From: a phage
Reading direction: 5' to 3' (one strand)
Length of the DNA stretch: 64,000 nt
Sequence record: PZ295659.1
Numbering within the stretch: position 1 is the stretch's first letter; each line of letters begins with the position of its first letter. The translations under genes and the position numbers were made by a program. The notes beneath the pieces are model-generated. The model saw only the letters and a program-made list of their open reading frames with translations. It searched no databases and was not told the DNA's origin. Of the stretch, positions 16,747 to 57,176 are shown in pieces.

Positions 16747-16755
16747 AATGTTTCC

Positions 16756-19274: not shown

Positions 19275-20375
19275 TTACGCTGTGAAGATTTTATCCCACA
19301 TCGCAACAACTGCATCTCGATTATACTTCTTCCATACTGCTTCAGCACGTTTAACTCGAGCTTCGTATGTGTCAGTGAATTCTAATACAGCTTTTGTGTA
19401 AAGCGCAACTACTTCTTTCTTAGGAGTAGAGGAATCAATTTCTACACGCACAGTATCTGGGTCGTATTCGAATGTCGCATGAGGATAATCCTTAAAAACT
19501 AACTGGATTACGGGGACACCTTTAGAGATGGCTTCAATAGAACTATTCTCTACTGTACCTGTGTCAGGACACGTATTAATAAGTGCTTTAGCTGTTTTAA
19601 GGCGTTCCATGATTTCACTGTGTGGAGCATCAATAATAACAGGATATTTAGCTGGTGGAGCCCATTTACTAGGACAGTATCCTACACCATTTTCGCCTAG
19701 TGCTTTAATCGCTTCAAGAGCAACATCGGTACGACGCATTTTAGTGTCATAACGTTGTGCACTAATAATCAGATCAGTCGCCGGAAGAACTTCAGGTTTC
19801 TCATTCAAACAAATAACCGGATAATCTTCGGCTTCAAACAACGGATTTGCTCGCCAATAATCATAATCAATTTTGTCAGTCAGAGCTGAAGTCATATGGC
19901 AATATTTACGTTCAAATTCACGGAAGGCTTTAGTAGGAGCATAACTCTTACCACCATTCTTATGAATTTGAATAGTCTGGTCCCAAATTTGAACAATGCC
20001 ACGAGATACCGGTTCAAATGGTGTTGCCATAAAATTCTTATGAACTTTAGAGAGACCTGCGTCTTTAATTGCCTGAACGGTTAGTTTAGTCGGTTCCATA
20101 GTAACAACAAAATCGTATTCATTGATGCCGGCTAGTTCAACAATCTTACGAGCCATAGTATAACTCATACCTAGACTGAATTTAGTCAGATGACCAACAG
20201 GATGGTGTGTAACTTTCCAGTCACCAAACGTGTCATTATCAAAGCCGATATAATCAATATCAGCACCGATGGACACAAGATATTTCAACACATTTAAATG
20301 TACTGCTTCAAGGCCACCTTGTACACGGTCAGGATTAAATGGGACTGCACGAGATGGGATAAACATAACTTTCAT
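19275..20375 (-). CDS. GT-B fold glycosyltransferase (candidate DNA sugar transferase)
   Basis: 366 aa; N-terminal MKVMFIPSRA... Rossmann-like start and C-terminal ENSSIEAISKGVPVI resembling the GT4 E-x7-E motif; sits between rIIA.1 and gp39. Confidence 0.65.
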   Translation of the reverse strand: MKVMFIPSRAVPFNPDRVQGGLEAVHLNVLKYLVSIGADIDYIGFDNDTFGDWKVTHHPVGHLTKFSLGMSYTMARKIVELAGINEYDFVVTMEPTKLTVQAIKDAGLSKVHKNFMATPFEPVSRGIVQIWDQTIQIHKNGGKSYAPTKAFREFERKYCHMTSALTDKIDYDYWRANPLFEAEDYPVICLNEKPEVLPATDLIISAQRYDTKMRRTDVALEAIKALGENGVGYCPSKWAPPAKYPVIIDAPHSEIMERLKTAKALINTCPDTGTVENSSIEAISKGVPVIQLVFKDYPHATFEYDPDTVRVEIDSSTPKKEVVALYTKAVLEFTDTYEARVKRAEAVWKKYNRDAVVAMWDKIFTA

Positions 20376-30951: not shown

Positions 30952-31473
30952 TTAGTAACCATTATCCTGGCGTTCAAAGTTGTGTTGGTTTTTCAGGTAA
31001 TACAGTTTGAAGATTTCTTCAGCAGAAAGTCCTAGACCTTGGAACATATTTAGAACGAAATGCAGAATATCAATCATTTCAAATTTAATTTCAAGCTGGT
31101 CTTCAGGAGACAGTTCATCGATACGACGATTTCGATATTCAGCATGTTGTGCCTTCCACGGCTTCCATACAGAGCTAGCGGCTTTTTCACCATTGCTCAT
31201 ACCACCAAGTGAAGTCAGCAGTTCACGGAATTCATCATCAATATAATCTTTCTGATTACGCAGCCAGTCAACAACATCACCAGCAGTAGCCAATTCATCA
31301 GGATGTTTGTTATGTTCAGGCTTGTCATTTGCCAGACGAACCTGTAAAGATTTCTGCATATCAAGCATTACCTGCAGAGGGTCTTTATCTTCGTGAATCA
31401 GAGCATTAAAATAAGCTTCTTCTGCTTTATCAACACCAGAAATAAGTTGTGAACATTCGTTAAAGTGCGCCAT
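30952..31473 (-). CDS. 56: dCTP pyrophosphatase gp56
   Basis: Start at ATG 31473 (MAHFNEC...), SD aaagga; MazG-like; between soc and gp61 as in T4. Confidence 0.75.
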   Translation of the reverse strand: MAHFNECSQLISGVDKAEEAYFNALIHEDKDPLQVMLDMQKSLQVRLANDKPEHNKHPDELATAGDVVDWLRNQKDYIDDEFRELLTSLGGMSNGEKAASSVWKPWKAQHAEYRNRRIDELSPEDQLEIKFEMIDILHFVLNMFQGLGLSAEEIFKLYYLKNQHNFERQDNGY

Positions 31474-35973: not shown

Positions 35974-36002
35974 TTTGTTCTCCTCTTGGTTGGTGTAAGT
36001 AC

Positions 36003-36032
36003 ATCATATCATGCCTAGAGGAAGATGTAAAC
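36003..36032 (-). promoter_or_regulatory. Early promoter (GTTTACA-N17-TATGAT)
   Basis: Immediately downstream of the gp41 terminator hairpin. Confidence 0.5.
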
Positions 36033-36036
36033 CCCG

Positions 36037-36058
36037 AAAGGAGACCGAAGTCTCCTTT
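36037..36058 (-). terminator. UUCG-tetraloop hairpin (GGAGAC-UUCG-GUCUCC) + U-run after gp41
   Basis: Plus-strand aaaggagaccgaagtctccttttt 4 nt after the gp41 stop. Confidence 0.65.
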
Positions 36059-36061
36059 TTA

Positions 36062-37855: not shown

Positions 37856-39020
37856 CGAAATCTTCCATTTCGTCAAGGTCGTTTTCTATATCTGCTGCAG
37901 ACGGAGCATCAGAAGTTTTAACCGGAACTTTAGTTGTTGCTTTGCAATTAATAAGGTCGTTAACAGCGTCATCAACTTCTTTAATAGAAGAGATAGCACC
38001 TAGTTTATATTTAGTTTCAATTGCATCTCGGAAAGGTTTGTGTTTAAACAACGGTCCCCAGAATTCTACACAATCAGTAGCTTTAGCACGCCATGATTTT
38101 TCTTCACGAATCATTTCACCTGTTTCTTCGTCAAGGAATTCACGAGCATACCAACCAGCTTTAGGCTTAACTACAAAACCAATTTCAGTTGCCATTTCTA
38201 ACAAGCCACTGAATGGGTCAATACCACCATCAAAATTAACTGTGATCGGAAAAGTAGATTTCTCTTTAACCGTACGAGATTTTTCTGCTTTCAACGTGAA
38301 GTCATAACCGGTCAATTCTGTACCTTCTTTAACCTGACGTTTAGAGATAAAGAATACAGTGTTAGCAGAGTAAAGAATACCTGTACCACCACCCATAATC
38401 TCTTTAGGATACAATCCGCCAATTTCCATTGCGGTATGGTTAATTGCAACACACGGAATATCTTTAATAGTCAGATACGGGGTCACAATGCGGAACAGAG
38501 ATTTAAGTGCCTTAGCACGAGACATATCACCTACAACTTTCTCGTTCAATGCATCTTCGGTTTCTTTCTTAGATGCAGTATTACCGATTGAATCGATAAA
38601 GATAATAACTTTATCACCGCGTTCAATCGCGTCAAGCTGATTAGTCATATCAACTTTAAGTTGTTCGACAGATTGAATCGGAGTATGAACTACACGGTCT
38701 AAATCAACACCCATTGAACGAAAATAAGATTCTGAAGCACCAAATTCTGAATCATAGAACAAACAAATTGCATCTTTATATTTCTTCATATATGCTGCAA
38801 CCATGGTCAGACCAAACAACGTTTTAAAGTGTTTAGAAGGAGCAGCAAAAATAGTTAAGCCTGATTGCAACCCGGCATTCAGTGCACCACCTAATGCAAT
38901 ATTCAACATCGGAATACGAGTAGGGACTTCATCACGATTATTAAACAGCTTAGACTTAGTCAAGTCTGCAGTCATTTTAGAAGTAGAAGCTTTAATCAGA
39001 CGAGATTTTAAATCAGACAT
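37848..39020 (-). CDS. uvsX: Recombinase UvsX (RecA-like)
   Basis: 390 aa; MSDLKSRLIKASTSKMTADLTKSKLFNNRDEVPTRIPMLNIALGG...; matches remembered T4/RB69 UvsX. Confidence 0.9.
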   Translation of the reverse strand: MSDLKSRLIKASTSKMTADLTKSKLFNNRDEVPTRIPMLNIALGGALNAGLQSGLTIFAAPSKHFKTLFGLTMVAAYMKKYKDAICLFYDSEFGASESYFRSMGVDLDRVVHTPIQSVEQLKVDMTNQLDAIERGDKVIIFIDSIGNTASKKETEDALNEKVVGDMSRAKALKSLFRIVTPYLTIKDIPCVAINHTAMEIGGLYPKEIMGGGTGILYSANTVFFISKRQVKEGTELTGYDFTLKAEKSRTVKEKSTFPITVNFDGGIDPFSGLLEMATEIGFVVKPKAGWYAREFLDEETGEMIREEKSWRAKATDCVEFWGPLFKHKPFRDAIETKYKLGAISSIKEVDDAVNDLINCKATTKVPVKTSDAPSAADIENDLDEMEDFDE

Positions 39021-39120: not shown

Positions 39121-39669
39121 TTAACGAGCCCATTTGATAATTTCTGTAATCAAATTATTACGTTCGCTTGCATTAAATCCTATAACTTTGTTAGCACCAT
39201 CATGATTAAGTAATTGATACGTTTGGATTTCGTTATGAATTGCAAACTCTTCAAAATATGAAATGACTGTATTAAAACCGAACGAAGACAAAGTAATAAG
39301 GTCGTCTTCAAAACTTTCAGTCATTTCGTTACGTGTTAAAATAATTGTGAACACATCATGGTTTTGGCAAAGACGAACATAATCCTGTTCATAAACGTCA
39401 AGAACCGAGTCCGCATCTTGTCGAATACGTCCATAAACCCAGTTACTAATATATCCACGGTCTAACAGATAAATCTTAGTAGGGTCTAAATAATTCAACA
39501 TCGTTTCGAAACAGCCAACTTCATTTCGAGACTTAACATCGAAACGTCCATCAACTGTTCGTTTAGGGAAATCAATCTTTACATATCTTTCGCTAATTTC
39601 CATTATGTCATTAATGAAAGTTGTTTTACCAGCATTATCCGGGCCATCTACTAAAATAATTTTAGCCAT
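39121..39669 (-). CDS. P-loop NTPase, nucleoside/nucleotide kinase-like
   Basis: 182 aa; Walker A ILVDGPDNAGKTTF; no direct T4 counterpart at this position. Confidence 0.5.
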   Translation of the reverse strand: MAKIILVDGPDNAGKTTFINDIMEISERYVKIDFPKRTVDGRFDVKSRNEVGCFETMLNYLDPTKIYLLDRGYISNWVYGRIRQDADSVLDVYEQDYVRLCQNHDVFTIILTRNEMTESFEDDLITLSSFGFNTVISYFEEFAIHNEIQTYQLLNHDGANKVIGFNASERNNLITEIIKWAR

Positions 39670-39670
39670 T

Positions 39671-40570
39671 TTATTCCTCGATTACGACATCTTCATATTT
39701 AGGTATATTATACGGCGAAGAAATTAAAGCATTAAAGTAGATGAACTCACCAAGACCTGGATGGAATACTTCTTCAGGATTTTCGAAATATTGAATCTTC
39801 GGTCGTCCTTTAAGAATTTGATAGTACTCAGTTTTAGTTGGGTTAAAAATTCGAATCAGCGCTTCTTCAGGATACTTATTTCTGTCGAAGCTATTATTTG
39901 GATCGGTTATATAAAGCGGTTGGCCTAATTGAATTGCACATTCAACCACTTGTTCAAAACGATAACACGGGTCACTAATTCGAAATGGATGAAAAATACC
40001 ATCTAGATGAATAGGAGCCAAATCACCTACAAGACGCTGCATGATGGAAGGACGTATAACTTTCTGCGTTACGATAATCTTATTACCATCTGCACCTGCG
40101 TTAACCAGCACTTCTTTTTGACGTTCATTCAACACAGTAGTTTGAAGTGAACGATTAACCGACAACATGTCGGTTTTTAAGAATTCGTCAATATAAAAAC
40201 GTGGTTTATTAGGGTCCGCAGTGATATTGAAATTGAATTCCACATCAAAAGCGCCGTCATATCCAGTGATATCTGTGATTAGAAAATCACAATCATAATA
40301 AGCAATTAATGAATCAACCACAAATTCATTTTCAGACCAGAAATATTTACGAGTGTTATATGCGTTATCTTTATACCATAATGGAACAAACTTAAATTCT
40401 GGGAAAAGACGTTCACATTCTTTAATATCAGATGCATTACGTGGATATGTAATCACATCACCCGGATTAGCACGGTGCAAATGAAGTTGGAAGTTGCCAT
40501 CCTTAAGGATAGCATACTGTCCAGTTTCATAAGACCGCATACTCAAGATAGGTACGCGGAAAATAGCCAT
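39671..40570 (-). CDS. Protein of unknown function at the beta-glucosyltransferase locus; candidate DNA sugar transferase
   Basis: 299 aa between uvsX and gp42; no recognisable similarity to remembered T4 beta-gt; no motifs identified. Confidence 0.35.
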   Translation of the reverse strand: MAIFRVPILSMRSYETGQYAILKDGNFQLHLHRANPGDVITYPRNASDIKECERLFPEFKFVPLWYKDNAYNTRKYFWSENEFVVDSLIAYYDCDFLITDITGYDGAFDVEFNFNITADPNKPRFYIDEFLKTDMLSVNRSLQTTVLNERQKEVLVNAGADGNKIIVTQKVIRPSIMQRLVGDLAPIHLDGIFHPFRISDPCYRFEQVVECAIQLGQPLYITDPNNSFDRNKYPEEALIRIFNPTKTEYYQILKGRPKIQYFENPEEVFHPGLGEFIYFNALISSPYNIPKYEDVVIEE

Positions 40571-41286
40571 TAGTCAAGGAATCCTTTAACATAATCAAAA
40601 TCACGTTCAAACACATGGGCACTTACCATGGTATGAGTATAATCACCAACTTCTACACCACATTCGTTAGCGATATAATGAAGTAATTTTCCTTGGAGAT
40701 AAAAATCCAACTGCATAACAACAGCACAGTTCTGAGAACGCATATGACAGTGGGTATAAAGCTTACCATCACGAATATAATAAGTCACTGAGTCAGTACA
40801 TGGATATTCAAGTGTTTCGTCCGAATCAAGCAAAGCCTGATCTGAACTTTCTAGAATTTGGAACACAACTCTTCGGGAGTTAGGCTTCTCTTTAAGTTCT
40901 TTTAGAAGAGCTGGTAATTGAGCCGCAATGCGAGGACCGTAGAAAGTGTTGAAGTTTGCAGGCAAAGCGTCTGATTTAGGTTTAGAAATAAATTTAGCGA
41001 CATTAGGATATGCCTTAAATGCTTCTTCTGCATCAGTACCACCAGAAATCATAAACTTCCAGAAGTCTTCGGCATATTCATAAGAGATGCGATTAATACG
41101 TGGATCGGTCATTTTGAATGATGAAGGGGTATCAACAACTACTGTCATAGACCCAATTTCATTACAACGTCCAATACGAGAATCAGTAACGAACTGTGGA
41201 TTTTCTAAAATTTCACGATTAACAGCTTTAAATGCGGATTGAAAATCTGCGGCTTTAATATATTTCATTGTGTTATGTTTTCCCAT
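40570..41286 (-). CDS. 42: dCMP hydroxymethylase (thymidylate synthase family)
   Basis: 238 aa; PCTDSVTYYIRDGKLYTHCHMRSQN aligns with the T4 gp42 active-site region CTNTVQYLIRD; SD gaggt; N-terminus diverged from my recollection of T4. Confidence 0.65.
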   Translation of the reverse strand: MGKHNTMKYIKAADFQSAFKAVNREILENPQFVTDSRIGRCNEIGSMTVVVDTPSSFKMTDPRINRISYEYAEDFWKFMISGGTDAEEAFKAYPNVAKFISKPKSDALPANFNTFYGPRIAAQLPALLKELKEKPNSRRVVFQILESSDQALLDSDETLEYPCTDSVTYYIRDGKLYTHCHMRSQNCAVVMQLDFYLQGKLLHYIANECGVEVGDYTHTMVSAHVFERDFDYVKGFLD

Positions 41287-41304
41287 GTTTACCTCAATAC
41301 AGTT

Positions 41305-41328
41305 ATTATATACTCAATTCATAAAGCT
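41305..41328 (-). promoter_or_regulatory. Candidate MotA-dependent middle promoter for gene 42
   Basis: Minus-strand AGCTTTA (one mismatch to the TGCTTTA MotA box) 11 nt upstream of TATAAT. Confidence 0.35.
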
Positions 41329-41406
41329 TATTTGAATTTCTTAGCAATGTTGATATAACGTAAAGCTTCAGCATCGATACTTCCAAGAACACTATGAAGA
41401 AATGCA

Positions 41407-41568
41407 TCAGCGTAGTATTCTAGTTGAACAGGTTTCTTTAATCACTTTAGCCGCTTTAGTTTCAAACAGGCCCATAAGGGCCTTTTTAAGAATTTGTTCG
41501 TTGCTGTTAATTTTCGTAGTCAAAATCTCTTCATTAAGTTGGTGGTTAAAAGTTTTTCTAGAAATCAT
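41407..41568 (-). CDS. Possible small protein (53 aa) coupled by ATGA to the Cys-rich gene
   Basis: ATG overlaps the upstream TGA; region also contains a GGCCC/GGGCC hairpin, so coding status is uncertain. Confidence 0.3.
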   Translation of the reverse strand: MISRKTFNHQLNEEILTTKINSNEQILKKALMGLFETKAAKVIKETCSTRILR

Positions 41569-42725
41569 TCCGGGTACCTCAAAGCGTCGTCAGAGTTAGT
41601 TATATCAATAATAGATATAGAGTTTTCTGCTAACCCATTTTTAGATAACTGACGTTTATAATATCTTTCACAATATGTACACGTCGTCCCGCAGATTTCA
41701 TTAGCACAATCGAAATCTGGATGTCTGAACCACCTTTTTTCTAAAAAGCCATCTAACAAAGAGGTTTCAATATTTACCGTATGTGAAAACTCGGTCTCAT
41801 TTTCAAGAGTGAAAATAGTCTCTAAAGGCTTCCACAATTCCAACAAATTACCTTCAAATTTTTCAGAAGCATAAGCTTCAAGAACTTTCAAAATGTAGTC
41901 TGTGCTACCTGTACGTCCTGAAACTTTGAATTGAGTGATACCAATATCATTATAAAGTTTCAAATCTTGAGGACGAACAAAACGAGTTCTCAACCAGTTA
42001 AATGGGTCTGTATCACGAGCTTTAATACAGTGTTGCATTGGATAGCCATTTAAGGATTTGGCATCATCTACTGTAACGTCGGTGCTATGGAAAATATAGC
42101 AAGAGTCACGATAGCTACAATGTGTTGTATACCCTTTACCAGCATTAGAACAGAACTCATTTACAAGAACTTCAAATATTATATTGTTCTTATTGCAAAA
42201 CTCTGCTGCACGCTTCAGGAAAGAAACTGAACGGTTCTTATGAATTCCACAGCAGACCTTTTTGATATTATATTGGTCATGCAAGTATTTGATTTGAGTT
42301 ACAGCATCGACATGTAGAATTGTTGAAACTTCAATCTCAATGTCTTTATTAACTTCACGAACAATTTCCATAACAACAGGGTTAGCGATAGTAATACGCC
42401 ATACGCCTATTGACCAAAGATACTGAACATAATCCTGAATAGCTTTCTTCTTCCACTCAACTAGTTCTCTTTTTGAACCAGGATTTATCGTGTTGAGTGT
42501 ATAGTTAAAGCAAATACCTAATTCGTTACAACGTTTAACATAATCTTCTAACATCTTTTTGTCAACGTCAGGAAGCCTAAAATCAGGTCTGGCTGCTACA
42601 AAAGCCATTTCTCTTGTAGAGCCGTATACTTCATTTATCAAGCTATTAGGATAAGTTTTATTGAGCTCTACGATTTTATCAAGAAGAGCTAAATCAAAAT
42701 TCGTTCCGATTTTAAAAGTATTCAT
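41565..42725 (-). CDS. Cys-rich protein of unknown function, possible metal or Fe-S binding, in the sugar-nucleotide module
   Basis: 386 aa; C-terminal CANEICGTTCTYC (C-x4-C-x3-C-x2-C) plus further Cys pairs; weak resemblance to U32-type Cys-rich segments not confirmed. Confidence 0.5.
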   Translation of the reverse strand: MNTFKIGTNFDLALLDKIVELNKTYPNSLINEVYGSTREMAFVAARPDFRLPDVDKKMLEDYVKRCNELGICFNYTLNTINPGSKRELVEWKKKAIQDYVQYLWSIGVWRITIANPVVMEIVREVNKDIEIEVSTILHVDAVTQIKYLHDQYNIKKVCCGIHKNRSVSFLKRAAEFCNKNNIIFEVLVNEFCSNAGKGYTTHCSYRDSCYIFHSTDVTVDDAKSLNGYPMQHCIKARDTDPFNWLRTRFVRPQDLKLYNDIGITQFKVSGRTGSTDYILKVLEAYASEKFEGNLLELWKPLETIFTLENETEFSHTVNIETSLLDGFLEKRWFRHPDFDCANEICGTTCTYCERYYKRQLSKNGLAENSISIIDITNSDDALRYPE

Positions 42726-42779
42726 TTTTACATCTCGCGTTAATTGATGCGATGGTTTTTGCAGGTCTTACTTAAATTA

Positions 42780-43181
42780 TTATAGATTCGGTTTATATGA
42801 TTTAAATGTTTCGAATTCGCCTTTATTCATAAGAGCTTTGAATTCGTCAGGACGCATAGCTTTGTCGTCGATAATCCAATCATATACTGGTTTATGTGTT
42901 AGCAAATTATGGTACTTCAAGCCAATGTTTGCCAAGTTCTGAATCAGACTTGGGAGAATGTCAATTGCTATACGACCAGGACCTACTGACTTCATACCGC
43001 GAGCAGTGTAAAGCGTTATTGTATGCCCTGCATCATACAGGGCATTAATGGCAGACACCATTTCGACGTCTGGTTTGAAGTTCACGTAATCACGATTGTT
43101 ATTCCACTCGGTTATACAATCATCGACATCAAAACAAAGATTAAGCATGTTTTCTACACGGTGCATTAGATTCGTTCCCAT
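42780..43181 (-). CDS. HAD-superfamily phosphatase (small, capless)
   Basis: 133 aa; motif I-like FDVDDCIT, then LYTAR and KP...WIIDDKA; an alternative ATG at 43166 overlaps the upstream stop as TAATG. Confidence 0.55.
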   Translation of the reverse strand: MGTNLMHRVENMLNLCFDVDDCITEWNNNRDYVNFKPDVEMVSAINALYDAGHTITLYTARGMKSVGPGRIAIDILPSLIQNLANIGLKYHNLLTHKPVYDWIIDDKAMRPDEFKALMNKGEFETFKSYKPNL

Positions 43182-44851
43182 TGATGAGTGATATCGCCAC
43201 CGATTGGACGATAGGAAACACCAGTTTCTTTATCAGTTAGTACCCATTTACCAGGATTTTTTGTAATCAGAGTAGCCGTTACAGGTTCTGCTACGTCATA
43301 ACTAATAGAGCCGTCTTGAAGTACACGGCCCATGTTACGTAATTGCTTAGTCAGAAGTTCCATACCTTTATAATATGCGGCTACCGCTTTAAGTGGATTA
43401 TTCTTGAAATAACCACCTAATGCAATCCAGATAATTGCTACAGCCAAATGATGATACTCGTTAAACGAACTCATCTTTCCATATTTGTAAACTAATGGAT
43501 TGATGTTAATAGTCACATTACAAGTTGTTTCATCAATAGTAAACTGACCCCAGGTCGGATTAGCGTTGAATTCATCATAACCTGAAACAGCGTAAAGCAC
43601 TTTAGCTTCATCATACAATTTTGGCCCGTAAATCTTGGTTTCACCAAAATATCCACGAGGGTCGATAAACTTGACTTCACCATTATCAGTAATCATAGTA
43701 TTACTGAAGTTCGGGTCACCATGAATAACAGAGTACTGTCCCTGAGAACGGTTATGATAACGAATAAGGTGTTCTAAAGCTTGTTTCAACATTGGCTTCA
43801 GACGTCCAATCTTAGTGTAGTTCACATGTGTGATTTTACCAAATGAATCAATCAATGGTTGAATACTTTCACAACGATCAATAACTTTCGTATAGAATTC
43901 TTTAGTGAAATCACGACGAACAGTTTCAGGACTTACAAAATAAGTGTCTGTGCTGAATTTCAGTGCATCTAAAATTGCATCAACAATTTGTGGACGAGCA
44001 AGACTCGATTTGGATTTAATATATTCAAATGCCGGCTTACCTTTAATGCGTTCCATTTCAAAGTTATTTTCATTAACAGAAACTAACTGAGGAACTGAAT
44101 CTGATTTCACTTTAAGATACCATGAAATCTCATCTTTCTGAAGAGCTCGACCCTGTTCGGTTAATGCGAATTTAGTTACAGTTTCTTCACCAATTTCAAC
44201 TGCATTAAAACTACGATTAAGTTCACGAACTTCATGAGCTTTTTCAAGTTTAGGCATATCACCTAAATCAATTAGATTCATAAGCTCTGATTTATTGAAT
44301 GCGCTGCCGTAAAGGAATTCTACGAAATCACGCCCTTTGCAGTATTCATGAATTTCCTCATCAGTAGAACCCATATAGAATTCCCAGTCTTTGAACTGAT
44401 AAATTCCTACAACATTACCACCTGTTGAACCTACGTTAGTGATATTTTCACCGTCGAAATTATATCGACATTCGTCACCCTTAACATAGATTGCGTTAAC
44501 ATTCCAAGACCATGAACCAAAATCAGGAATAATATCGCACCAGTTAACAATTACATTATGGCTGTCTAAATCTTTGTGTAATTTAGCAAGAGCATAAGCA
44601 GAACCATACGCTTCATCAACTGTACGAATAGTCACATTGAACCCTTCTTGCTCACAATAAGCTCGAACAGTTTCAGCAAATTTTGAATGAACTACTACAA
44701 TAATTTCATCTGCGCCAAGGTCAGAATAAATTGTATACAAATTGCTCAGAATAGTGTCTTGTTTATAGTTAACAAGCACCTTAGGAATATGATGCGTTAT
44801 TGGATACAAACGAGTTGCCAGTCCAGCACCAAGAATAACAGCTTTTTTCAT
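43166..44851 (-). CDS. Bifunctional sugar-1-phosphate nucleotidyltransferase / APH-fold sugar kinase fusion
   Basis: 561 aa; N-terminal AVILGAGLATRLYP (RmlA-type G-x-G-T-R-L), C-terminal VIHGDPNFSNTMI...FIDPRG (Brenner and D-x-x-G motifs of choline/aminoglycoside kinase fold). Confidence 0.65.
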   Translation of the reverse strand: MKKAVILGAGLATRLYPITHHIPKVLVNYKQDTILSNLYTIYSDLGADEIIVVVHSKFAETVRAYCEQEGFNVTIRTVDEAYGSAYALAKLHKDLDSHNVIVNWCDIIPDFGSWSWNVNAIYVKGDECRYNFDGENITNVGSTGGNVVGIYQFKDWEFYMGSTDEEIHEYCKGRDFVEFLYGSAFNKSELMNLIDLGDMPKLEKAHEVRELNRSFNAVEIGEETVTKFALTEQGRALQKDEISWYLKVKSDSVPQLVSVNENNFEMERIKGKPAFEYIKSKSSLARPQIVDAILDALKFSTDTYFVSPETVRRDFTKEFYTKVIDRCESIQPLIDSFGKITHVNYTKIGRLKPMLKQALEHLIRYHNRSQGQYSVIHGDPNFSNTMITDNGEVKFIDPRGYFGETKIYGPKLYDEAKVLYAVSGYDEFNANPTWGQFTIDETTCNVTININPLVYKYGKMSSFNEYHHLAVAIIWIALGGYFKNNPLKAVAAYYKGMELLTKQLRNMGRVLQDGSISYDVAEPVTATLITKNPGKWVLTDKETGVSYRPIGGDITHQWERI

Positions 44852-44892
44852 GTTGTGGTCCTCATTGGTAAGTAGGAGTATTGTACACTATT

Positions 44893-45036
44893 CTAGTTAA
44901 AGCATTCATACTTTGCTTGTAGTCCAATCATAATCCATCCGATTACAAGTGTTGGAATCATTACTGGAGCCGTTAAGCTCCAGTAGATAGTCATGACAAG
45001 CATCAATAGTAAAAGTCCTATTGTTATTGCTTTCAT
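44893..45036 (-). CDS. Small hydrophobic peptide (47 aa) coupled by ATGA to the isomerase gene
   Basis: MKAITIGLLLLMLVMTIYWSLTAPVMIPTLVIGWIMIGL...; ATG overlaps the TGA of the SIS gene. Confidence 0.4.
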   Translation of the reverse strand: MKAITIGLLLLMLVMTIYWSLTAPVMIPTLVIGWIMIGLQAKYECFN

Positions 45037-45668
45037 TGTTCGCCTCGTAACATGGCACCTAGTGCACCGCCAGGGTGGAACTTAAGGAAGTCATTAGAGG
45101 TAAATCCACGTTCAGACGAAAGGTTGATAGCAAACGTATCGATAAGCGCTAACAACAATGTAGTGGACATGGTCGGAGCCAGAGAATTCTCATCAACCTC
45201 TACTGCGATGCCTGTACAGAACGTATAATCAAAAAGAGCTTCATATTCTTGTGGAATGTCTGGGTTACAATGCAACAGAATCTGTTTGACGTTCGGACGA
45301 ATCATTTTAAGATGCTTAGCCACGCCTATCATTTCTTCAGTTTTACCAGAACGACTAATATGAATCAACACATCATTAGGCGCAATGAATCCTGCATCAC
45401 CGTGAGAATAATGCCCGGTGTTCAAGTACATACTAGGGATACCGAGTGAAGCAAATGTTTCAGAAGCTTTAGTTGCAATATTAGCATTCTTACCAACACC
45501 TGTAATAATTACTCGGCTTTCATAATTACTAAGCCCTGGGCGTCGAAGAGTTTCTAGAATAGCATTATAACGAGCAGGGTTTTGACTAATTACTTTGGCC
45601 ATAGCGGCCAAAGAAGAAGCTTGTTTTATGATTGCGTCAATAGCGATAGTAATAGGAGTAGTTTTCAT
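45033..45668 (-). CDS. SIS-domain sugar-phosphate isomerase, KdsD/GutQ-like (arabinose-5-phosphate isomerase type) without CBS domains
   Basis: 211 aa; ITGVGKNANIATKASETFASLGIPSMYLNTGHYSHGDAGFIAPNDVLIHISRSGKT parallels the KdsD SIS core GMGKSGHIG...HGDLG...ISNSGES. Confidence 0.7.
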   Translation of the reverse strand: MKTTPITIAIDAIIKQASSLAAMAKVISQNPARYNAILETLRRPGLSNYESRVIITGVGKNANIATKASETFASLGIPSMYLNTGHYSHGDAGFIAPNDVLIHISRSGKTEEMIGVAKHLKMIRPNVKQILLHCNPDIPQEYEALFDYTFCTGIAVEVDENSLAPTMSTTLLLALIDTFAINLSSERGFTSNDFLKFHPGGALGAMLRGEQ

Positions 45669-51874: not shown

Positions 51875-53563
51875 TTATGAAACAGTCATTACAGTAAATC
51901 GTCCAACTTTGCTCATCTGAAGATGTTGTCCATAACGTTGAGGGTCATGGTCTCGATGAGAGATAATGAACACGTTAGTATTTTGTAAACTTCCAAGAAT
52001 GGTATCTATAGCCTTAACAGCCTCAGAATCGACAGCACCATCAAAAACCTCATCAAGAATCAGAGTGTTGATTTTAACACCAGAGACCTTTTCAGCAATA
52101 TCTCGCCATGTAAACAACAATGCGATATCGATACGTGCCTTTTCACCTTGACTAAATGAAGCATAACTGAAATCTTCACGGCCACGTGATTTTATAGATT
52201 CATTGAATTCTTCGTCAATAGAAAACACGTAATCAGCTTCCATGATTTTAAGATAATAGTTAATCTGCTTGTTGAACAGAGGCACATATTTTTTAATGAT
52301 AGCACCTTTAATACCAGAATCTTTTAACATATCTGTGATAATACCACGATGGTATTTTTCAAGAACGATATCCGATTTTGTTTTAATGATTTTATCAAGT
52401 TCTTTTTGAAGCAAAGCTATCTCATCGGCATGGTCGATAAATTCCGCCGAGGCTTGTTCTATTGCAGCTTTAACTTTCTTAGCTTTATCAATAGTGGCAA
52501 TCATTGCTTGTTTCTTGGTACGAATATCAGATGCAAGGTCCTGTTTAGTCTTAACATTAGCTCTATATTCGTCCACTAGGACACTCAGATTATCTCTGTG
52601 ACATGTAAGTTGCTCGAATGAGTGATTACATTCATGAAGCTTATCGGTAATCTTAGAGACAATAGGGTCACCCTGGTGCAACTGTGACGCACAAGTAGGA
52701 CATGTGCCACCGTCATGATACATCTTAATAACTTTGTTATATGAGTCGATTTTAGATTTAATCAAGAATGCTTCTTGTCCGATCTTGTTGAATGCCTCAG
52801 TAGGGTCTTCATCAAGAACGATATTAAGTAGTCGCTCATTAGCTTCTTCGATTTCTGCTTTTAATGAACGAGCTTCTTTGGCTAGGTCGTCATACATATT
52901 CTGTAGACGCGCTACATTATCACCAGATAATTTCTTTTGACGTTCGATATTCTCGTTATAAATCTTAATTTGTTGGATAATACCATCTTTCTTGGCATCG
53001 AGAACTTGTCCCTGGGAATTAAGTTCTCGAACTTGAGACTTATTGATTTTATCCATTTCAGCGAGTGTGCCGACTTCTAAAAGGTCTTCGACAAGTTTTC
53101 TACGAGCAGGGGTGCTAAGAGCCATGAAAGGGGTATACCCTGCCGTCCCAAGCACAACGATTTGTTTAAAAGACGCGTATGACATTCCGATGCTACGTTC
53201 AAATTCTTCTTGGAAGTCACGACTGCTGGCAGATTCATCAAGACGAACACCGTCAACGGAGATTTCGAAAATATTGGGCTTTTGGCCACGTTTAATGAAG
53301 TATTTTTTACCATCGAATTCCATCCAAAGCTCAACTAAGAGCTCTTTCTTGTTCGTGCTATTAATGATTTGCCCTTTCTTAACATCACGAAATGGTTTAC
53401 CGAAAAGTCCGAAAGTAATGGCTTCTAACATCGTAGATTTACCACCGCCGTTTTTACCAGTGATTAATGTCTTTTGGACTTTATCTAATTGGATGTCAAT
53501 AGGATTCCCACCTACCGACATGATGTTTTGATAACGAACACGATTTAATTTAAATGATTTCAT
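51875..53563 (-). CDS. 46: Recombination endonuclease subunit gp46 (Rad50/SbcC-like)
   Basis: 562 aa; MKSFKLNRVRYQNIMSVG...ITGKNGGGKST Walker A, coiled-coil middle, CPTC zinc hook, C-terminal ABC signature. Confidence 0.9.
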   Translation of the reverse strand: MKSFKLNRVRYQNIMSVGGNPIDIQLDKVQKTLITGKNGGGKSTMLEAITFGLFGKPFRDVKKGQIINSTNKKELLVELWMEFDGKKYFIKRGQKPNIFEISVDGVRLDESASSRDFQEEFERSIGMSYASFKQIVVLGTAGYTPFMALSTPARRKLVEDLLEVGTLAEMDKINKSQVRELNSQGQVLDAKKDGIIQQIKIYNENIERQKKLSGDNVARLQNMYDDLAKEARSLKAEIEEANERLLNIVLDEDPTEAFNKIGQEAFLIKSKIDSYNKVIKMYHDGGTCPTCASQLHQGDPIVSKITDKLHECNHSFEQLTCHRDNLSVLVDEYRANVKTKQDLASDIRTKKQAMIATIDKAKKVKAAIEQASAEFIDHADEIALLQKELDKIIKTKSDIVLEKYHRGIITDMLKDSGIKGAIIKKYVPLFNKQINYYLKIMEADYVFSIDEEFNESIKSRGREDFSYASFSQGEKARIDIALLFTWRDIAEKVSGVKINTLILDEVFDGAVDSEAVKAIDTILGSLQNTNVFIISHRDHDPQRYGQHLQMSKVGRFTVMTVS

Positions 53564-53799
53564 ATGTATTCTCTTCGAATGAAGTCCTCTACATATTTTA
53601 ACATGTTATCTCTATCAGCAAAATATTCATCTAGTTCTGCATACATAACAACACCTGGTGCGTACTCACAGGTAACATACATTGTTCCAAAGAAACGAGG
53701 AGTTGATTCCTCGTAATTCTCGGTCCATTCAACGATACCAATATAACCGTCACCAATACTAAATTCATGACGATGGATTTCATAATCAGTCTTCGTCAT
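53560..53799 (-). CDS. Hypothetical small protein (46.x position)
   Basis: Start at internal ATG with SD gagga. Confidence 0.45.
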   Translation of the reverse strand: MTKTDYEIHRHEFSIGDGYIGIVEWTENYEESTPRFFGTMYVTCEYAPGVVMYAELDEYFADRDNMLKYVEDFIRREYI

Positions 53800-54043
53800 T
53801 ATACGCGTCCTCAATACACGCTTCAGCCATTTTAAGAATAGAGCCAGGAGTATCGTTGTCCATTATATTAAAGCTAAATTCAATAGCCCAGTCTGTGCAG
53901 ACATGAACTGCTTTAACTTCATTGCCTTCAACGCGTAATGGCTCAATCCAATACTTGATAGTGTTCTCGAATCCATCATCATCTTTAACGTCCATTTCAA
54001 CTTCAAGCCCAAGCCCAGCATTGTTAAATTCATCTAAAGTCAT
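53786..54043 (-). CDS. Hypothetical small acidic protein (46.x position)
   Basis: 85-aa ORF. Confidence 0.45.
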   Translation of the reverse strand: MTLDEFNNAGLGLEVEMDVKDDDGFENTIKYWIEPLRVEGNEVKAVHVCTDWAIEFSFNIMDNDTPGSILKMAEACIEDAYNDED

Positions 54044-55059
54044 TGTGTTGCCTCAATATAAAGTTCATTGGAATATTTGACCAGCGCTTCTCTTTCTTCG
54101 TCTGAGATATCTGGAATCGCGTCAATATATTCTTTAATGATATCTTGAAGTGATTTAATCTCGATTTCCTGGTCATCATCAGATTCAACACTGTTATCAA
54201 CTTTAGAAACCATACGAAGAGAGTGAACTACTTTTTCAAGTTCAGATTCAAACTTAGTCAACTCTGAATCAATTTCTGATACTATAACACGTACGGCTAG
54301 ATTAGTATAATCAGAATAATTGATTTTGCCTTTAAACGGATAAGTGATTCGTCGATGCCATGTTGTTTCATTAGGAATAAATTCCATACGTTCAACATCA
54401 GTGTCAAATACCCAGAATCCGCGCGGGTCGTTCTCATCGCCTGCAGTAAGGGTCCATGGTGTCCCAATATATTTAACGTTAGCAGCTTCAGAGATTGTGT
54501 GGAAGTGGCCAGACCAGACTTGTTTATAGGTCTTTAAGAAATCAGGTTCAAGCCCATGAGACTTCATTCCTTTATAGAAATAAAAGCCATTCAGTTCCCA
54601 GTGACCAACACAATACGCCGCAGAAGAAGTCTTGATGTGCTCTAAGATTTCACCTGTATTTTCTTCACACATCCATGGAACGATATCAATAAGACATCCG
54701 TCAAAATCTACAGTAGTTGGATGTTCGTAAATAGTAAAGTTTTCAAATTGAGTTAACAATTCAGAAACAGTGTTAGGTGTTATTGTATTCTTAAACGCCA
54801 TGTCATGATTTCCTATCGTGACATGAACGTGAATGCCTGCTTTAGAAATCATATCAACGATTTCACGATTGAATTCCATTGTACGATGTGTTATTGCTTT
54901 ACGGACGTCAAACCAATCACCGTACTGAATCCAAGTTTTAATCCCGTGTTTCTTAGAGTATTCAATTGCTTGACGAATACCATCACGTTGAATATCTTGA
55001 ACCCATGGGTCGTCTTGTTTGACTCCGATATGGAAGTCGCCTAAGTGCAAAATTTTCAT
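54040..55059 (-). CDS. 47: Recombination endonuclease subunit gp47 (Mre11/SbcD-like)
   Basis: 339 aa; MKILHLGDFHIG phosphoesterase motif I and further calcineurin-like motifs. Confidence 0.9.
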   Translation of the reverse strand: MKILHLGDFHIGVKQDDPWVQDIQRDGIRQAIEYSKKHGIKTWIQYGDWFDVRKAITHRTMEFNREIVDMISKAGIHVHVTIGNHDMAFKNTITPNTVSELLTQFENFTIYEHPTTVDFDGCLIDIVPWMCEENTGEILEHIKTSSAAYCVGHWELNGFYFYKGMKSHGLEPDFLKTYKQVWSGHFHTISEAANVKYIGTPWTLTAGDENDPRGFWVFDTDVERMEFIPNETTWHRRITYPFKGKINYSDYTNLAVRVIVSEIDSELTKFESELEKVVHSLRMVSKVDNSVESDDDQEIEIKSLQDIIKEYIDAIPDISDEEREALVKYSNELYIEATQ

Positions 55060-55112
55060 ATTATTTCCTCATTAGTTAATTCATTCTATCATCCGTTTAT
55101 AAAGCAAAAAAA

Positions 55113-55132
55113 AAGGAACTCCGAAGAGTTCC
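55113..55132 (-). terminator. UUCG-tetraloop hairpin (AGGAACUC-UUCG-GAGUUCCU) + U8 upstream of gp47
   Basis: 8-bp stem, UUCG loop, eight-U tail; overlaps the stop of the small ORF 55131..55289. Confidence 0.7.
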
Positions 55133-55289
55133 TATCCACATAGTACACCGTACAGAGGCTCACGGTTCGATTTGAACTTGATCGGCCTACGGGTAATAGT
55201 ACCTTCTGCTTTAGCTTTTTCATATGATGCGTTAAAACGCTTAATCATATTAGTTTTGCTTTCTCTAATCTTGTTGAAATCGATGTCCA
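55131..55289 (-). CDS. Possible small basic protein (52 aa)
   Basis: ATG with SD aagga; not in the six-frame track (under 60 aa); followed by the terminator hairpin. Confidence 0.35.
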
Positions 55290-55344
55290 TAGGAGTCCTT
55301 AGAAATCTGGATGTTCGTCATTCATTAACCAGCGGTCCATGTTA

Positions 55345-55545
55345 TCACCGTTGCCACCATTTTTTAAGTTGATGTGAATCTACCCACACCTTCGCTACAG
55401 GTTCAATCTGAAAAATACCATCAGACGTACGTCCAATCATTTTGTATTCGGTCTCAGATTGTTTGACACAAATATCACCGTAAGAGCGAAGTCTAAAAGC
55501 GGCTCCTACTAGAAGCCGTTTAAATGGTTTATTTACTAGCGCCAT
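55345..55545 (-). CDS. Hypothetical small protein
   Basis: Start at internal ATG 55545. Confidence 0.4.
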   Translation of the reverse strand: MALVNKPFKRLLVGAAFRLRSYGDICVKQSETEYKMIGRTSDGIFQIEPVAKVWVDSHQLKKWWQR

Positions 55546-55852
55546 TAATGATGTCCTCAATAGCCTGACGAGTAGTAACCCACTGAATTTTAATCAATTC
55601 GTCAGTGTAGGGTTGACGCAGAATATCACGAGATTTTTTAATAGCGTATTCGTAAGCTTCGAAGTTATTTTGAATTGCAGCTTCTTGCGCGTGAGCATAA
55701 AGACGATTAAGTTCGCTACGATTCTTTTTAAGAATCTTTTCGGCTTTCTTAACCGCTTCTGCTTCATTTTTCTTTTGAATTTCTTGTAGCATTTTAGCTA
55801 CTTTATCTTCGGCTTCTTTGTTTTCAGCTCTTTCAATAATCTCAGTATTCAT
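55529..55852 (-). CDS. Hypothetical protein
   Basis: 107-aa ORF, charged, helical-looking. Confidence 0.5.
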   Translation of the reverse strand: MNTEIIERAENKEAEDKVAKMLQEIQKKNEAEAVKKAEKILKKNRSELNRLYAHAQEAAIQNNFEAYEYAIKKSRDILRQPYTDELIKIQWVTTRQAIEDIINGASK

Positions 55853-55853
55853 A

Positions 55854-56069
55854 TTATCTCATTAAATTAAAATAAAAACGTCCGTCCTCTTCAATACAGA
55901 ACTCATACTCAACCGGAGTCCCATTTATCGAAAATGACACGTCATGTGGGTTCAAAGGGTCGATGTCAAAATTAATTTTAAATTCTCGACCCAACAGTTT
56001 TACCAAATAAGGGATTGCTTCGTCAAAAGGTTCTTCTAAGTAGTTAGAGATGTCAATTGTCATCCTCAT
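55854..56069 (-). CDS. Hypothetical small protein downstream of gp55
   Basis: Six-frame ORF trimmed to an internal ATG to limit overlap with gp55. Confidence 0.4.
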
Positions 56070-56610
56070 ATAAAAAATCCAAACTAGGCGAATCGCTAAC
56101 AACTTCCTTCTTTTCAGCCCCAGGAGCTTTATAAGCGGATTCTTCATAATGCGTCATTTTATCGTAGATGTCTTGAATAAACGTTTCATCTACCAACGCT
56201 ACCATATCATCGTCATGACTGTCGTAGACATTATGAACGAAGTAACTATATTTCTTTGCAACTTCCTTACGTTCTTTTTTGATACGTTGGACAAAAGCAT
56301 TAAAACAAGCTCGAGTTATGTATGCATGTGGGTTATTGTACTTAGTTTCGTCGAAATTATGAAGTCCCTTAATAGAGGCTTCAATCCCATCTGCAATCAT
56401 CTCCTGCTTCCAAGACTGGGTATATCCTGAAAAGTTGAAACGTTTGGACAGGCCTTCGGCGATAAGCATAATTGCTAAACCGATGGTATCATTCTGACGA
56501 ATAATTTTGTTTGGGTCTTTATTATTTAAGAGCTCCTTTTTCCACTCGATTATAGCGGCGAGAAGCTCTTTATTATTCACATAGTTATTTTTAGGTTTTT
56601 GTTCAGTCAT
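56053..56610 (-). CDS. 55: Late-transcription sigma factor gp55
   Basis: 185 aa; [28 protein letters not shown]...; size and sequence as remembered for T4 gp55. Confidence 0.9.
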
Positions 56611-56682
56611 AAGTACCTCTTAGCTCAATTCATAGGTCTATTATATCATAATATTTAGAGACCTATCTTAAAGCACGAGATA

Positions 56683-56952
56683 CTATCGGAGCAAACAATA
56701 AGCCTGAAACACTTTTTCCATTAAACGTTTGAACTCATGGATATCGATATAAAGCTCAGTAAGACCGGCATTATAAAGAAAATCTAAAAAGTTCTCATGT
56801 GTTTCATTATAGTCGCCTTCGTTTAATTGAGATACATGAGTTTCCCAAAAACCAACACCTTTAACAAATGGAAAATACGTGACTTTCATGTATTCGTCAA
56901 CATAAAATTCGCCCAGCTTTTCTTCAGTTATACTGATTCGAGTTAATTTCAT
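56683..56952 (-). CDS. Hypothetical protein (55.x region)
   Basis: 89-aa ORF. Confidence 0.45.
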   Translation of the reverse strand: MKLTRISITEEKLGEFYVDEYMKVTYFPFVKGVGFWETHVSQLNEGDYNETHENFLDFLYNAGLTELYIDIHEFKRLMEKVFQAYCLLR

Positions 56953-57176
56953 TCTAGTTCCTTTGCTGCTTCAAGAGCAGCATCCAGCGAATCAAATTGG
57001 TCAACGAAATCAATATTCAACGCATCGTCAACCGTAGCATATAACCACCATTGTTTGAATTCATATTCTAGGATAAATCCAGGACCTTCAATCTGAGGAA
57101 GACCTAGGCTATTTGTACCAACTTCGTAACCAGCTAGACGCAGGTCGTTAATCAAAGTTTCTGTTAATACGCTCAT
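56949..57176 (-). CDS. Hypothetical acidic protein (55.x region)
   Basis: 75-aa ORF with stop/start overlap. Confidence 0.45.
   Translation of the reverse strand: MSVLTETLINDLRLAGYEVGTNSLGLPQIEGPGFILEYEFKQWWLYATVDDALNIDFVDQFDSLDAALEAAKELE

Follow-up and report, generated by a model that had tools for sequence, protein, structure and literature searches.

An RB69-like Mosigvirus without α-glucosyltransferase between genes 47 and 55 carries orthologs of the arabinose-based DNA modification system

Why does a relative of T4 lack the α-glucosyltransferase gene at the very place where T4 carries it? The T4 interval reads 47, 47.1, a-gt, mobB, a-gt.2, a-gt.3, a-gt.4, a-gt.5, 55, with an a-gt product of 400 aa. 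A sequence-only reading of the 64-kb stretch of phage DNA analysed here (hereafter the window) had correctly placed an a-gt gene of about this size between T4 genes 47 and 55, and had proposed that a-gt is missing between positions 55060 and 56052. These bounds are exact: on one side lies the gene 47 start codon (55059), on the other the stop of gene 55 (56053). The absence was likewise borne out: the biggest ORF in the interval encodes 107 aa, and tblastn of T4 a-gt against the window found no homolog (best E 1.4-2.7). Phage identity makes this absence less surprising. At least 80% of window positions 54000-56700 is spanned by 147 Mosigvirus-type records, and the closest complete genomes share 97.3% identity over 25 kb (39001-64000), the nearest relative being S143_2 (168,769 bp). 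We are highly confident that the source is a Mosigvirus, i.e., an RB69-like relative of T4, that has an empty slot in its 47-55 interval and an arabinose-based system in place of T4 glucosylation. The missing a-gt is real but ordinary for RB69-like phages, a group already known to be without the T4 glucosyltransferases; both this absence and the arabinose replacement are in print for RB69 (2018, 2025-2026; PMC6024577, PMC13326640).

The interval is flanked by gene 47 (54040..55059), which encodes a 339-aa SbcD-like recombination nuclease subunit with 75.5% amino acid identity to T4 gp47 over 339 aa and 99% to S143_2 gp47, and by gene 55 (56053..56610), which encodes the 185-aa late sigma factor (90.7% identity to T4 gp55). 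Both genes lie on the minus strand, as do four ORFs between them, none of which approaches 400 aa. A Shine-Dalgarno motif, GAGGA, can be read on the same strand at 55066..55070, 6 nt ahead of the gene 47 ATG. Along the minus strand the order is 55, a-gt.5, a-gt.4, a-gt.3, a-gt.2, a predicted intrinsic terminator of C(UUCG)G type, the predicted MotA-dependent middle promoter P47, 47, 46.2, 46.1 and 46. This is best explained as a prereplicative transcription unit that is conserved among these phages, in the form usual for Mosigvirus. No late promoter (TATAAATA) occurs in the interval, and the whole window has three vs 7.3 expected. A sigma-70 consensus promoter scan was uninformative (16 found vs 13.9 expected), and an Rfam search of 54000-57000 returned nothing but a chance-level miRNA match (E 0.58).

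The four ORFs between genes 47 and 55, all on the minus strand, have orthologs in T4. The 52-aa a-gt.2 product (55132..55290) is 64.7% identical to its T4 counterpart (E 3e-20) and matches Pfam DUF5486 (E 3.5e-24) and phrog_2140; a-gt.3 (55345..55545; 66 aa) matches T4 a-gt.3 (E 4e-14) and phrog_1648; a-gt.4 (55529..55852; 107 aa) is 60% identical to T4 a-gt.4 (E 3e-33) and matches Pfam DUF2654 (E 1e-28); and a-gt.5 (55854..56069; 71 aa), whose start overlaps the final 17 nt of gene 55, matches T4 a-gt.5 (E 1e-14) and Pfam DUF5491 and is 100% identical to the S143_2 protein. The a-gt.3 product has 66 aa when counted from ATG and 71 aa if begun at an upstream TTG, and a 97-aa form of a-gt.5 in the mechanical ORF list starts within gene 55. 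Literature on a-gt.2 to a-gt.5 or DUF2654 amounted to one gene-list mention. The names are purely positional and say nothing on glucosylation.

That the interval holds only small ORFs was thus described correctly in the sequence-only reading; taken as a sign of replacement, the observation fails. The small ORFs do fill the space where a-gt was expected, which might suggest a lineage-specific cassette that substitutes functionally for a-gt. We give almost no credence to such a cassette. The ORFs are not replacements because they are orthologs of T4 genes that coexist with a-gt, as its neighbours, in the same interval, so that the T4 gene map already contradicts the idea. Their order is kept whether a phage has a-gt (T4, KP1079) or not (QL01, Mosigvirus; in CGG4-1, a-gt.4 plus gene 55). 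Homologs of a-gt.4 occur in 1388 phage records, Acinetobacter and Vibrio phages among them, vs 657 for a-gt, and none of the small ORFs is big enough for a glycosyltransferase fold.

Could the glucosyltransferase genes have moved elsewhere in the genome? A homolog of a-gt or b-gt at another locus was named beforehand as what would overturn the proposed absence, and neither tblastn nor HMMER found one in the window or in the complete S143_2 genome. The search covered the 64-kb window itself, and the remaining ~104 kb only through the 97%-identical S143_2. The tblastn queries were T4 a-gt, T4 b-gt (best E 1.6 in the window, 3.6 in S143_2) and the T2/RB27-type ba-gt (RB27 ba-gt, 0.41 and 0.83), the lowest E value overall being 0.029. 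A profile built from T4 and KP1079 a-gt gave a best E of 0.4 over the 1372 ORFs of the window plus S143_2 (HMMER --max), and phmmer with b-gt and ba-gt gave 2.5 and 0.69. The E 0.029 match, of T4 a-gt residues 211-295 to S143_2 53326-53565 at 28% identity, was rejected: HMMER gave E 0.63-1.6, which is not significant, and by its annotation the gene is orthologous to one from the T4 nrdC region, whose product T4 has in addition to a-gt. This weak match and the ~104 kb lying outside the window are what relocation has in its favor. Against it, the match is to an nrdC-region ortholog, nothing else fell below E 0.4 in the whole S143_2 genome, two papers find no homolog in RB69 (one of which reports that RB69, without a-gt and b-gt homologs, has arabinosylated cytosine; PMC6024577), and there is no gp42 ortholog to supply a hydroxymethylcytosine acceptor. 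Relocation therefore seems extremely improbable.

The genes for a different modification lie mainly in a minus-strand cluster at the position of T4 segA/b-gt/42 (the uvsX-43 locus), and they point to the chemistry established for RB69 and HY126. The first gene of the cluster (39121..39669) encodes a nucleotide kinase-like RB69 gp45 ortholog, 98.9% identical to RB69 ORF045c (fold from PMC13326640, Table 1). It is followed by a gene for a GT-B glycosyltransferase orthologous to RB69 gp46:47, the proposed first arabinosyltransferase, present as a single 299-aa ORF (39671..40570). The next product (40570..41286), a thymidylate synthase homolog (Pfam Thymidylat_synt, PF00303) that is 99.2% identical to ORF048c, is predicted to be a 5-hydroxy-dCMP synthase, an activity shown experimentally for its RB69 ortholog gp48 (PMC13326640). 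It stands in place of T4 gp42 and is not a gp42 ortholog, T4 gp42 matching only 40597-41208 at 24.8% identity. Further along are genes for a Peptidase-U32-like RB69 gp50 ortholog with a putative pathway role (41565..42725; PF01136; 99.2% to ORF050c), an HAD-like sugar phosphatase equivalent to RB69 gp51 and HY126 AfhF (42780..43181; 99.2% to ORF051c; function from PMC13326640), and a 561-aa bifunctional arabinose-phosphate kinase/UDP-arabinose pyrophosphorylase equivalent to RB69 gp52:53 and HY126 AfhE (43166..44851; Pfam NTP_transferase plus weak kinase matches; 99.1-99.7% to RB69 ORF053c and ORF052c). The last is an arabinose-5-phosphate isomerase orthologous to RB69 gp55 (45033..45668; Pfam SIS domain; 99.1% to ORF055c). 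In the RB69 record, 46/47 and 52/53 are each broken into two ORFs, whereas each pair is a single ORF in the window; for 52:53, resequencing has confirmed a single ORF in RB69 as well (PMC6024577).

Two more minus-strand genes lie outside this cluster. One, adjoining rIIA (19275..20375), encodes a second GT-B glycosyltransferase, the proposed second arabinosyltransferase, which is orthologous to RB69 ORF003c (98.4% to RB69 gp3) and near-identical to the HY126 glycosyltransferase of solved structure (9iqz/9ir0; E 1.8e-251). The other encodes the gp56 dCTPase (30955..31473), which supplies dCMP and excludes dCTP and is 100% identical to the S143_2 dCTP pyrophosphatase over 173 aa. Pfam gave no matches for the two transferases or the kinase-like protein, and searching PDB sequences with the 299-aa product returned nothing; the GT-B assignment for the transferases relied on a structure model. 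With a 5-hydroxy-dCMP synthase, UDP-arabinose synthesis genes and two GT-B transferases of the gp46:47 and gp3 types, the window holds the components of the RB69/HY126 system, and amino acid identity of the arabinosylation genes to the RB69 proteins is 98.4-99.7% overall.

In virion DNA of RB69, 5-hydroxycytosine is found in mono- and di-arabinosylated form, and this acceptor base is made by gp48 and is not the hydroxymethylcytosine made by gp42; the same work proposes gp46:47 and gp3 as the arabinosyltransferases (PMC13326640). By orthology to RB69 and HY126, virion DNA of the present phage probably carries arabinosyl-5-hydroxycytosine as well; the modification chemistry is taken from experiments on those two phages, and gene content, orthology and GT-B fold come from our analysis. 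The thymidylate synthase homolog (40570-41286) would make 5-hydroxy-dCMP instead of gp42-made hydroxymethyl-dCMP, the cluster at 39121-45668 would make UDP-arabinofuranose, and the GT-B transferases (39671-40570 and 19275-20375) are proposed to add one or two arabinoses. An a-gt enzyme would then find no substrate in this phage. The idea that glucosylation had been swapped for another sugar system holds as far as the sugar is concerned and stops short of the full change: judged by comparison with RB69, more than the sugar has been exchanged, the acceptor base being 5-hydroxycytosine made via a thymidylate synthase homolog in place of gp42-made hydroxymethylcytosine. Absence of a-gt and b-gt, taken alone, is also compatible with a simple loss of glucosylation that left the modified cytosine unglycosylated, with no working replacement system. 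We consider simple loss very improbable, since all the RB69 arabinosylation pathway genes are intact, even the two that the old RB69 record shows as split, neither transferase is truncated, and RB69 itself has the arabinosylated base in its virion DNA.

The slot that holds a-gt in T4 lies here between two regulatory elements. Downstream of a-gt.2 on the minus strand is the UUCG terminator noted in the sequence-only reading, which is real: AGGAACUC-UUCG-GAGUUCCU plus U9 (55106..55133; stem-loop 55133-55114, U9 55114-55106), i.e., an 8-bp stem with a UUCG loop closed by C-G and then nine T residues. The 5' arm contains the a-gt.2 stop codon. The hairpin has an MFE of -12 kcal/mol (z = -2.8 vs shuffles); a terminator scan of the 4-kb region found three vs 2.1 expected, so that the raw count alone is not significant. 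A homologous hairpin occupies the same position in T4, Dhakavirus (QL01) and Jiaodavirus (KP1079), with stems that differ yet are always complementary, reflecting compensatory changes. With GC pairs in the stem, a U run behind it and a position at a gene end, the structure has the form of an intrinsic terminator, and it probably terminates transcription.

Directly 3' of the terminator is a predicted MotA-dependent middle promoter, P47 (55083..55108, minus strand), with the box TTTGCTTTA at 55108-55100, an 11-nt spacer, a -10 element TAGAAT at 55088-55083 and a predicted start near 55076. This agrees with the published MotA consensus, (a/t)(a/t)(a/t)TGCTTtA located 12 ± 1 bp from a -10 TAnnnT (PMC2988021). 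The window has 16 matches to the pattern TGCTTYA-N11-13-TANNNT (12 on the minus strand) vs 1.7 expected. P47 aligns with T4 elements whose starts coincide with the mapped middle promoters P47 (36576) and PmobB (38682) (PMC2988021, Table 1), and from this homology it is likely to fire. The genes motA and asiA are present by synteny only: window positions 8406-13688 are 95.7% identical to S143_2 160389-165672, where both are annotated.

Hairpin and promoter together form a module (hairpin plus TTGCTTTA-N11-12-TAnnnT) that bounds the cassettes with a-gt, mobB or HNH genes found in T4, KP1079 and QL01, and that has a twin in the window at 22300-22258. The module resembles the PeSL composite motifs of T4-like phages, which consist of a stem-loop plus an early promoter (Arbiol 2010, PMC2839356; Comeau 2014, PMC4122927), in that a stem-loop is directly followed by a promoter and the unit is repeated at indel boundaries between related phages. 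Unlike PeSLs, which have early sigma-70 promoters with a GTTTAC-type -35, the module and its twin have a middle promoter of MotA-box type. Elsewhere in the window, hairpins such as that at 36058-36037 precede GTTTAC-type early promoters.

Comparison across genera locates the variation in this slot. T4 has orthologs of both flanking genes and of all four small genes, and the UUCG hairpin after a-gt.2 and the MotA promoter before gene 47 are homologous; the difference is an extra 2252 bp with 47.1, a-gt, the homing endonuclease gene mobB and a second copy of the hairpin/promoter module. Against these 2252 bp (T4 locus 16451-18702), the window has 34 bp (55062-55095). RB69 and HY126, both Mosigvirus, share the order 55, a-gt.5, a-gt.4, a-gt.3, a-gt.2, 47 and have no a-gt, and Dhakavirus QL01 and Gaprivervirus VR5 have the same small genes, also without a-gt. 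QL01 differs in having an HNH endonuclease gene in the slot ahead of gene 47, and identity to the window proteins is only 65% for gp47 and 81% for gp55. The space between terminator and P47 is the variable slot, holding mobB, a-gt and 47.1 in T4, a-gt in Jiaodavirus, an HNH endonuclease gene in Dhakavirus, and nothing here. We infer that cassettes may enter and leave it by recombination between duplicated terminator/promoter modules.

Whether a-gt was ever in the slot in this lineage is a separate matter. One reading is that it was never in Mosigvirus and that Tequatrovirus and Jiaodavirus ancestors gained it by insertion, along with a duplicated module; the alternative is deletion in Mosigvirus. 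Two module copies flank a-gt in T4 and KP1079, as insertion would give, a-gt homologs in the phage collection form two identity groups (T4-like, at least 90%; Klebsiella-phage-like, ~66%), and Dhakavirus, Gelderlandvirus and Mosigvirus are all without a-gt at the slot. However, a deletion by recombination between two copies of the module is expected to leave one hybrid copy, precisely what is present here: its 5' half is like the T4 copy that follows a-gt.2, its 3' half like T4 P47. We rate insertion as falling just short of an even chance.

The small genes next to the slot add a minor new detail. The best isolate match, 97.3% overall, drops to ~75% over 55100-55900, identity over 55150-55850 is just 58-88% across all isolate genomes of the collection, and the top nucleotide matches of 55130-55560 are VR5, VR20 and QL01-type phages (75-77%). 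The a-gt.3 protein has 89% amino acid identity to that of QL01 vs 47% to that of S143_2, and the exact protein is encoded on at least 19 metagenome contigs. Together, a-gt.2 and a-gt.3 make up a divergent allele encountered only on metagenome contigs, of Dhakavirus type in a-gt.3. We tentatively suggest, while considering it rather doubtful, that the space from a-gt.2 to 47 is a cassette-exchange site, delimited by the duplicated modules, for a-gt, mobB and HNH genes across the Tevenvirinae and also the left edge of a cross-genus a-gt.2/a-gt.3 allele replacement, in which a Dhakavirus-type a-gt.3 entered a Mosigvirus sub-lineage known only from metagenomes.

The discovery value of the missing glucosyltransferase is small, both the lack of these enzymes in RB69-like phages and their arabinose hypermodification having been published and biochemically dissected (2018, 2025, 2026). 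For annotation, the phage should be treated as having arabinosyl-5-hydroxycytosine DNA, and this predicts which restriction, CRISPR and type IV systems it would resist and to which it would be sensitive. The slot bounded by terminator and promoter, like the divergent allele of a-gt.2 and a-gt.3, is a minor addition to the modular-exchange picture of T4-like phages. If the slot is indeed an exchange site, the PeSL model, which deals with early-promoter modules of hyperplastic regions, would come to include MotA-type modules, and a phage's set of DNA hypermodification enzymes would be governed by the latter.

No alpha-glucosyltransferase gene (a-gt) lies between genes 47 (54040-55059, minus strand; 75.5% amino acid identity to T4 gp47) and 55 (56053-56610, minus strand; 90.7% to T4 gp55), as the sequence-only reading had claimed for 55060-56052, exactly the gap between the two genes. 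T4 a-gt, which specifies 400 aa in this interval, had a best E-value >1 in the window, and the largest ORF here has 107 aa. The four small ORFs were ruled out as a-gt replacements, being orthologs of T4 a-gt.2 (55132-55290; 52 aa, E 3e-20, DUF5486, phrog_2140), a-gt.3 (55345-55545; 66 aa, E 4e-14, phrog_1648), a-gt.4 (55529-55852; 107 aa, E 3e-33, DUF2654, phrog_951) and a-gt.5 (55854-56069; 71 aa, E 1e-14, DUF5491, phrog_1169), all on the minus strand and already so annotated in existing Mosigvirus records. Relative to the T4 order (47, 47.1, a-gt, mobB, a-gt.2, a-gt.3, a-gt.4, a-gt.5, 55), 47.1, a-gt and mobB are absent, the 2252-bp T4 locus 16451-18702 corresponding to 34 bp (55062-55095). 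A two-codon remnant (ATG AAT TAA) occupies the 47.1 position.

Homologs of a-gt.4 occurred in 1388 phage records and of a-gt in 657. Because phages lacking a-gt also retain a-gt.2 to a-gt.5, these names reflect position and are uninformative on glucosylation. We found no literature on their function. Some GenBank records (hits H210, H215 and H224) name homologs of a-gt.2 to a-gt.4 'anti-restriction nuclease' or 'hemolysin', labels without support in the Pfam or PHROG results.

The 47-55 region matched 718 phage records, 147 with at least 80% query coverage, and all those inspected among the 147 belong to genus Mosigvirus (RB69-like, Tevenvirinae). The nearest complete genomes are NHEP11 and S143_2 (97.3% identity over 25 kb, 39001-64000), with RB69-type phages close behind. 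The window starts in the tail-fibre genes, crosses the conventional genome start (rIIB/rIIA) and reaches the nrdD/49 region; it is equivalent to S143_2 152318-168769 and then 1-47738. Its tail-fibre region (1-8405, plus strand) has diverged from S143_2 far more than the remainder: identity is 85% at 1-1459 and 74% at 2175-4558, and 4559-8405 (distal gp37 / gp38 adhesin) had no megablast match to S143_2. This divergence suggests that the receptor specificity differs.

The glucosyltransferase search covered the window and the complete 168,769-bp S143_2 genome, with T4 a-gt, T4 beta-glucosyltransferase (b-gt) and the T2-type beta-alpha-glucosyltransferase of RB27 (ba-gt) as queries. The lowest E-value from sensitive tblastn was 0.029. 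All 1372 stop-to-stop ORFs were also searched by unfiltered HMMER with an a-gt profile built from T4 and KP1079 and with b-gt and ba-gt as single queries, and no match had an E-value under 0.4. Neither method detected an a-gt, b-gt or ba-gt homolog in the window or S143_2, in line with the sequence-only reading. The single marginal tblastn match, to a gene annotated as ortholog of a T4 nrdC-region protein, lacked HMMER support.

The UUCG terminator of that reading is real. The hairpin (55133-55114, minus strand) has an 8-bp stem, a C(UUCG)G tetraloop and nine following U residues (minimum free energy -12 kcal/mol, z = -2.8), and its 5' arm contains the a-gt.2 stop codon (TAG, 55134-55132). The end of the U-run is overlapped by TTTGCTTTA (55108-55100), followed after 11 nt by TAGAAT (55088-55083), GAGGA (55070-55066) and the gene 47 ATG at 55059. 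T4 middle promoters have a MotA box, (a/t)(a/t)(a/t)TGCTTtA, at 12 +/- 1 bp from the -10 element (PMC2988021). TTTGCTTTA-N11-TAGAAT conforms to this rule, and by analogy with T4 P47 transcription is predicted to start near 55076. Matches to TGCTTYA-N11-13-TANNNT number 16 in the window (1.7 expected), a count reached in 0 of 100 shuffles; 12 matches are on the minus strand, the strand of the prereplicative genes. Among close relatives (the window, metagenome contigs L014-L019 near 4415-4440, and loci L001 and L002), the T-run at 55106-55114 varies in length (T6, T9, T10, T11, T13), and the -10 element is TAGAAT or TAAAAT.

Two homologous modules of hairpin plus promoter are present in T4, one after a-gt.2 (GGAGC-UUCG-GCUCC, then TTGCTTTA-N12-TAAAAT) and one after a-gt (AAAGGGC-UUCG-GCCCUUU, then AGCTTTA-N12-TATAAT). 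Their -10 elements precede the mapped start sites of PmobB (38682) and P47 (36576), respectively, by 6-7 nt (PMC2988021). In the one module of the window, the 5' half is similar to the T4 copy that follows a-gt.2, and the 3' half to T4 P47 (CGGATGATAGAATG vs CGGAGTTTGATATAATG). The slot between a-gt.2 and gene 47 is empty in Mosigvirus. In Jiaodavirus KP1079 it contains only a-gt, flanked on each side by a UUCG hairpin and a TGCT-containing element; in Dhakavirus QL01 it contains an HNH endonuclease gene that follows AAAGGAGC-UUAG-GCUCCUUU and TTGCTTTA; and in Gelderlandvirus CGG4-1 it contains small ORFs together with a 47.1 homolog. The difference may reflect deletion of a-gt in Mosigvirus or, alternatively, its insertion in the lineages of T4 and Jiaodavirus. 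The CGG4-1 homolog of 47.1 (locus L013, 4156-4299; 47 aa, 28/44 residues identical to T4 47.1), unannotated in this Salmonella phage, overlaps the gene 47 start; a genus lacking a-gt thus carries 47.1.

The hairpin stems differ in sequence across genera yet always pair, which indicates selection on structure. The arrangement is like that of PeSLs, composite terminator/promoter stem-loop motifs at indel boundaries of T4-like genomes (PMC4122927), but the window promoter is of MotA type. The window has about ten UUCG-capped hairpins with a perfect stem of 6 bp or more. A near-twin module upstream of gene 39 (22300-22258, minus strand) has AAGGGC-TTCG-GCCCTT, then TTTGCTTTA-N11-TAGAAT; CGGATGATAGAAT is common to this module and the one preceding gene 47. 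Other stems precede GTTTAC-type early promoters; for example, the C(UUCG)G hairpin at 36058-36037 (minus strand, within 35960-36070) is followed by an early-promoter-like GTTTACA...TATGAT element, a classical PeSL, and sits exactly where S143_2 has ~416 bp extra (ORF 19332-19706), absent from the window.

The left edge of an allele swap adjoins the terminator module. Genes 47 and 55 are 99-100% identical to S143_2, but identity drops to 58-88% between ~55150 and 55850, a local mosaic patch (55150-55850). The a-gt.3 protein shares 89% identity with its Dhakavirus QL01 counterpart and 47% with that of S143_2, and a-gt.2 is about 65% identical to both S143_2 and T4; a-gt.4 and a-gt.5 are 91% and 100% identical to S143_2. 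In a collection of 50,697 phages, no record exceeded ~75% over the length of 55100-55900, the best matches of 55130-55560 were Gaprivervirus and Dhakavirus phages (75-77%), and the a-gt.2/a-gt.3 allele was absent. An identical a-gt.3 protein is encoded by at least 19 contigs derived from metagenomes, with gene order unchanged; the six compared are 96-98% identical to the window, four giving a single unbroken alignment along the entire 8.2 kb. The window and these contigs represent a Mosigvirus sub-lineage in which the a-gt.2/a-gt.3 allele is swapped. Apart from the swap and the variable T-run, the interval is ordinary for the genus.

Where T4 has segA, b-gt, 42, imm and imm.1, between uvsX (37848-39020 here) and gene 43 (45709-48420), the window carries RB69 orthologs: a kinase-like gene (39121-39669; gp45), a GT-B transferase (39671-40570; gp46:47), a thymidylate-synthase homolog (40570-41286; gp48), a U32-like protein (41565-42725; gp50), a HAD-like phosphatase (42780-43181; gp51), a 561-aa nucleotidyltransferase/kinase (43166-44851; gp52:53) and a SIS-domain isomerase (45033-45668; gp55). 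A second transferase gene (19275-20375; gp3) is flanked by rIIA.1 and gene 39, and its product is essentially the HY126 glycosyltransferase whose structure has been solved (9iqz/9ir0, E 1.8e-251). All eight are 98.4-99.7% identical to RB69. The ORFs at 39671-40570 (299 aa) and 43166-44851 are single and intact, and are split in the RB69 GenBank record (ORF046c/047c, ORF052c/053c), which is consistent with reported RB69 sequencing errors. Homologs of imm and imm.1 (64% and 32% identity to T4), located between genes 42 and 43 in T4, lie at 34518-35187 (minus strand) upstream of gene 41; the uvsX-43 region was thus rearranged as well as refilled.

The proposal that glucosylation was exchanged for another sugar system is supported by these RB69-type arabinose genes, but the base was exchanged too, and the small ORFs are irrelevant to the exchange. 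The thymidylate-synthase homolog is only 24.8% identical to T4 gp42, and RB69 gp48 makes 5-hydroxy-dCMP, not hydroxymethyl-dCMP; RB69 DNA contains mono- and di-arabinosylated 5-hydroxycytosine, and the HY126 UDP-arabinofuranose pathway has been reconstituted (PMC13326640). The absence of T4 glucosyltransferases, read correctly from the sequence, is an already known property of RB69-like phages; in this phage a-gt would be dispensable because its acceptor base would not be made.
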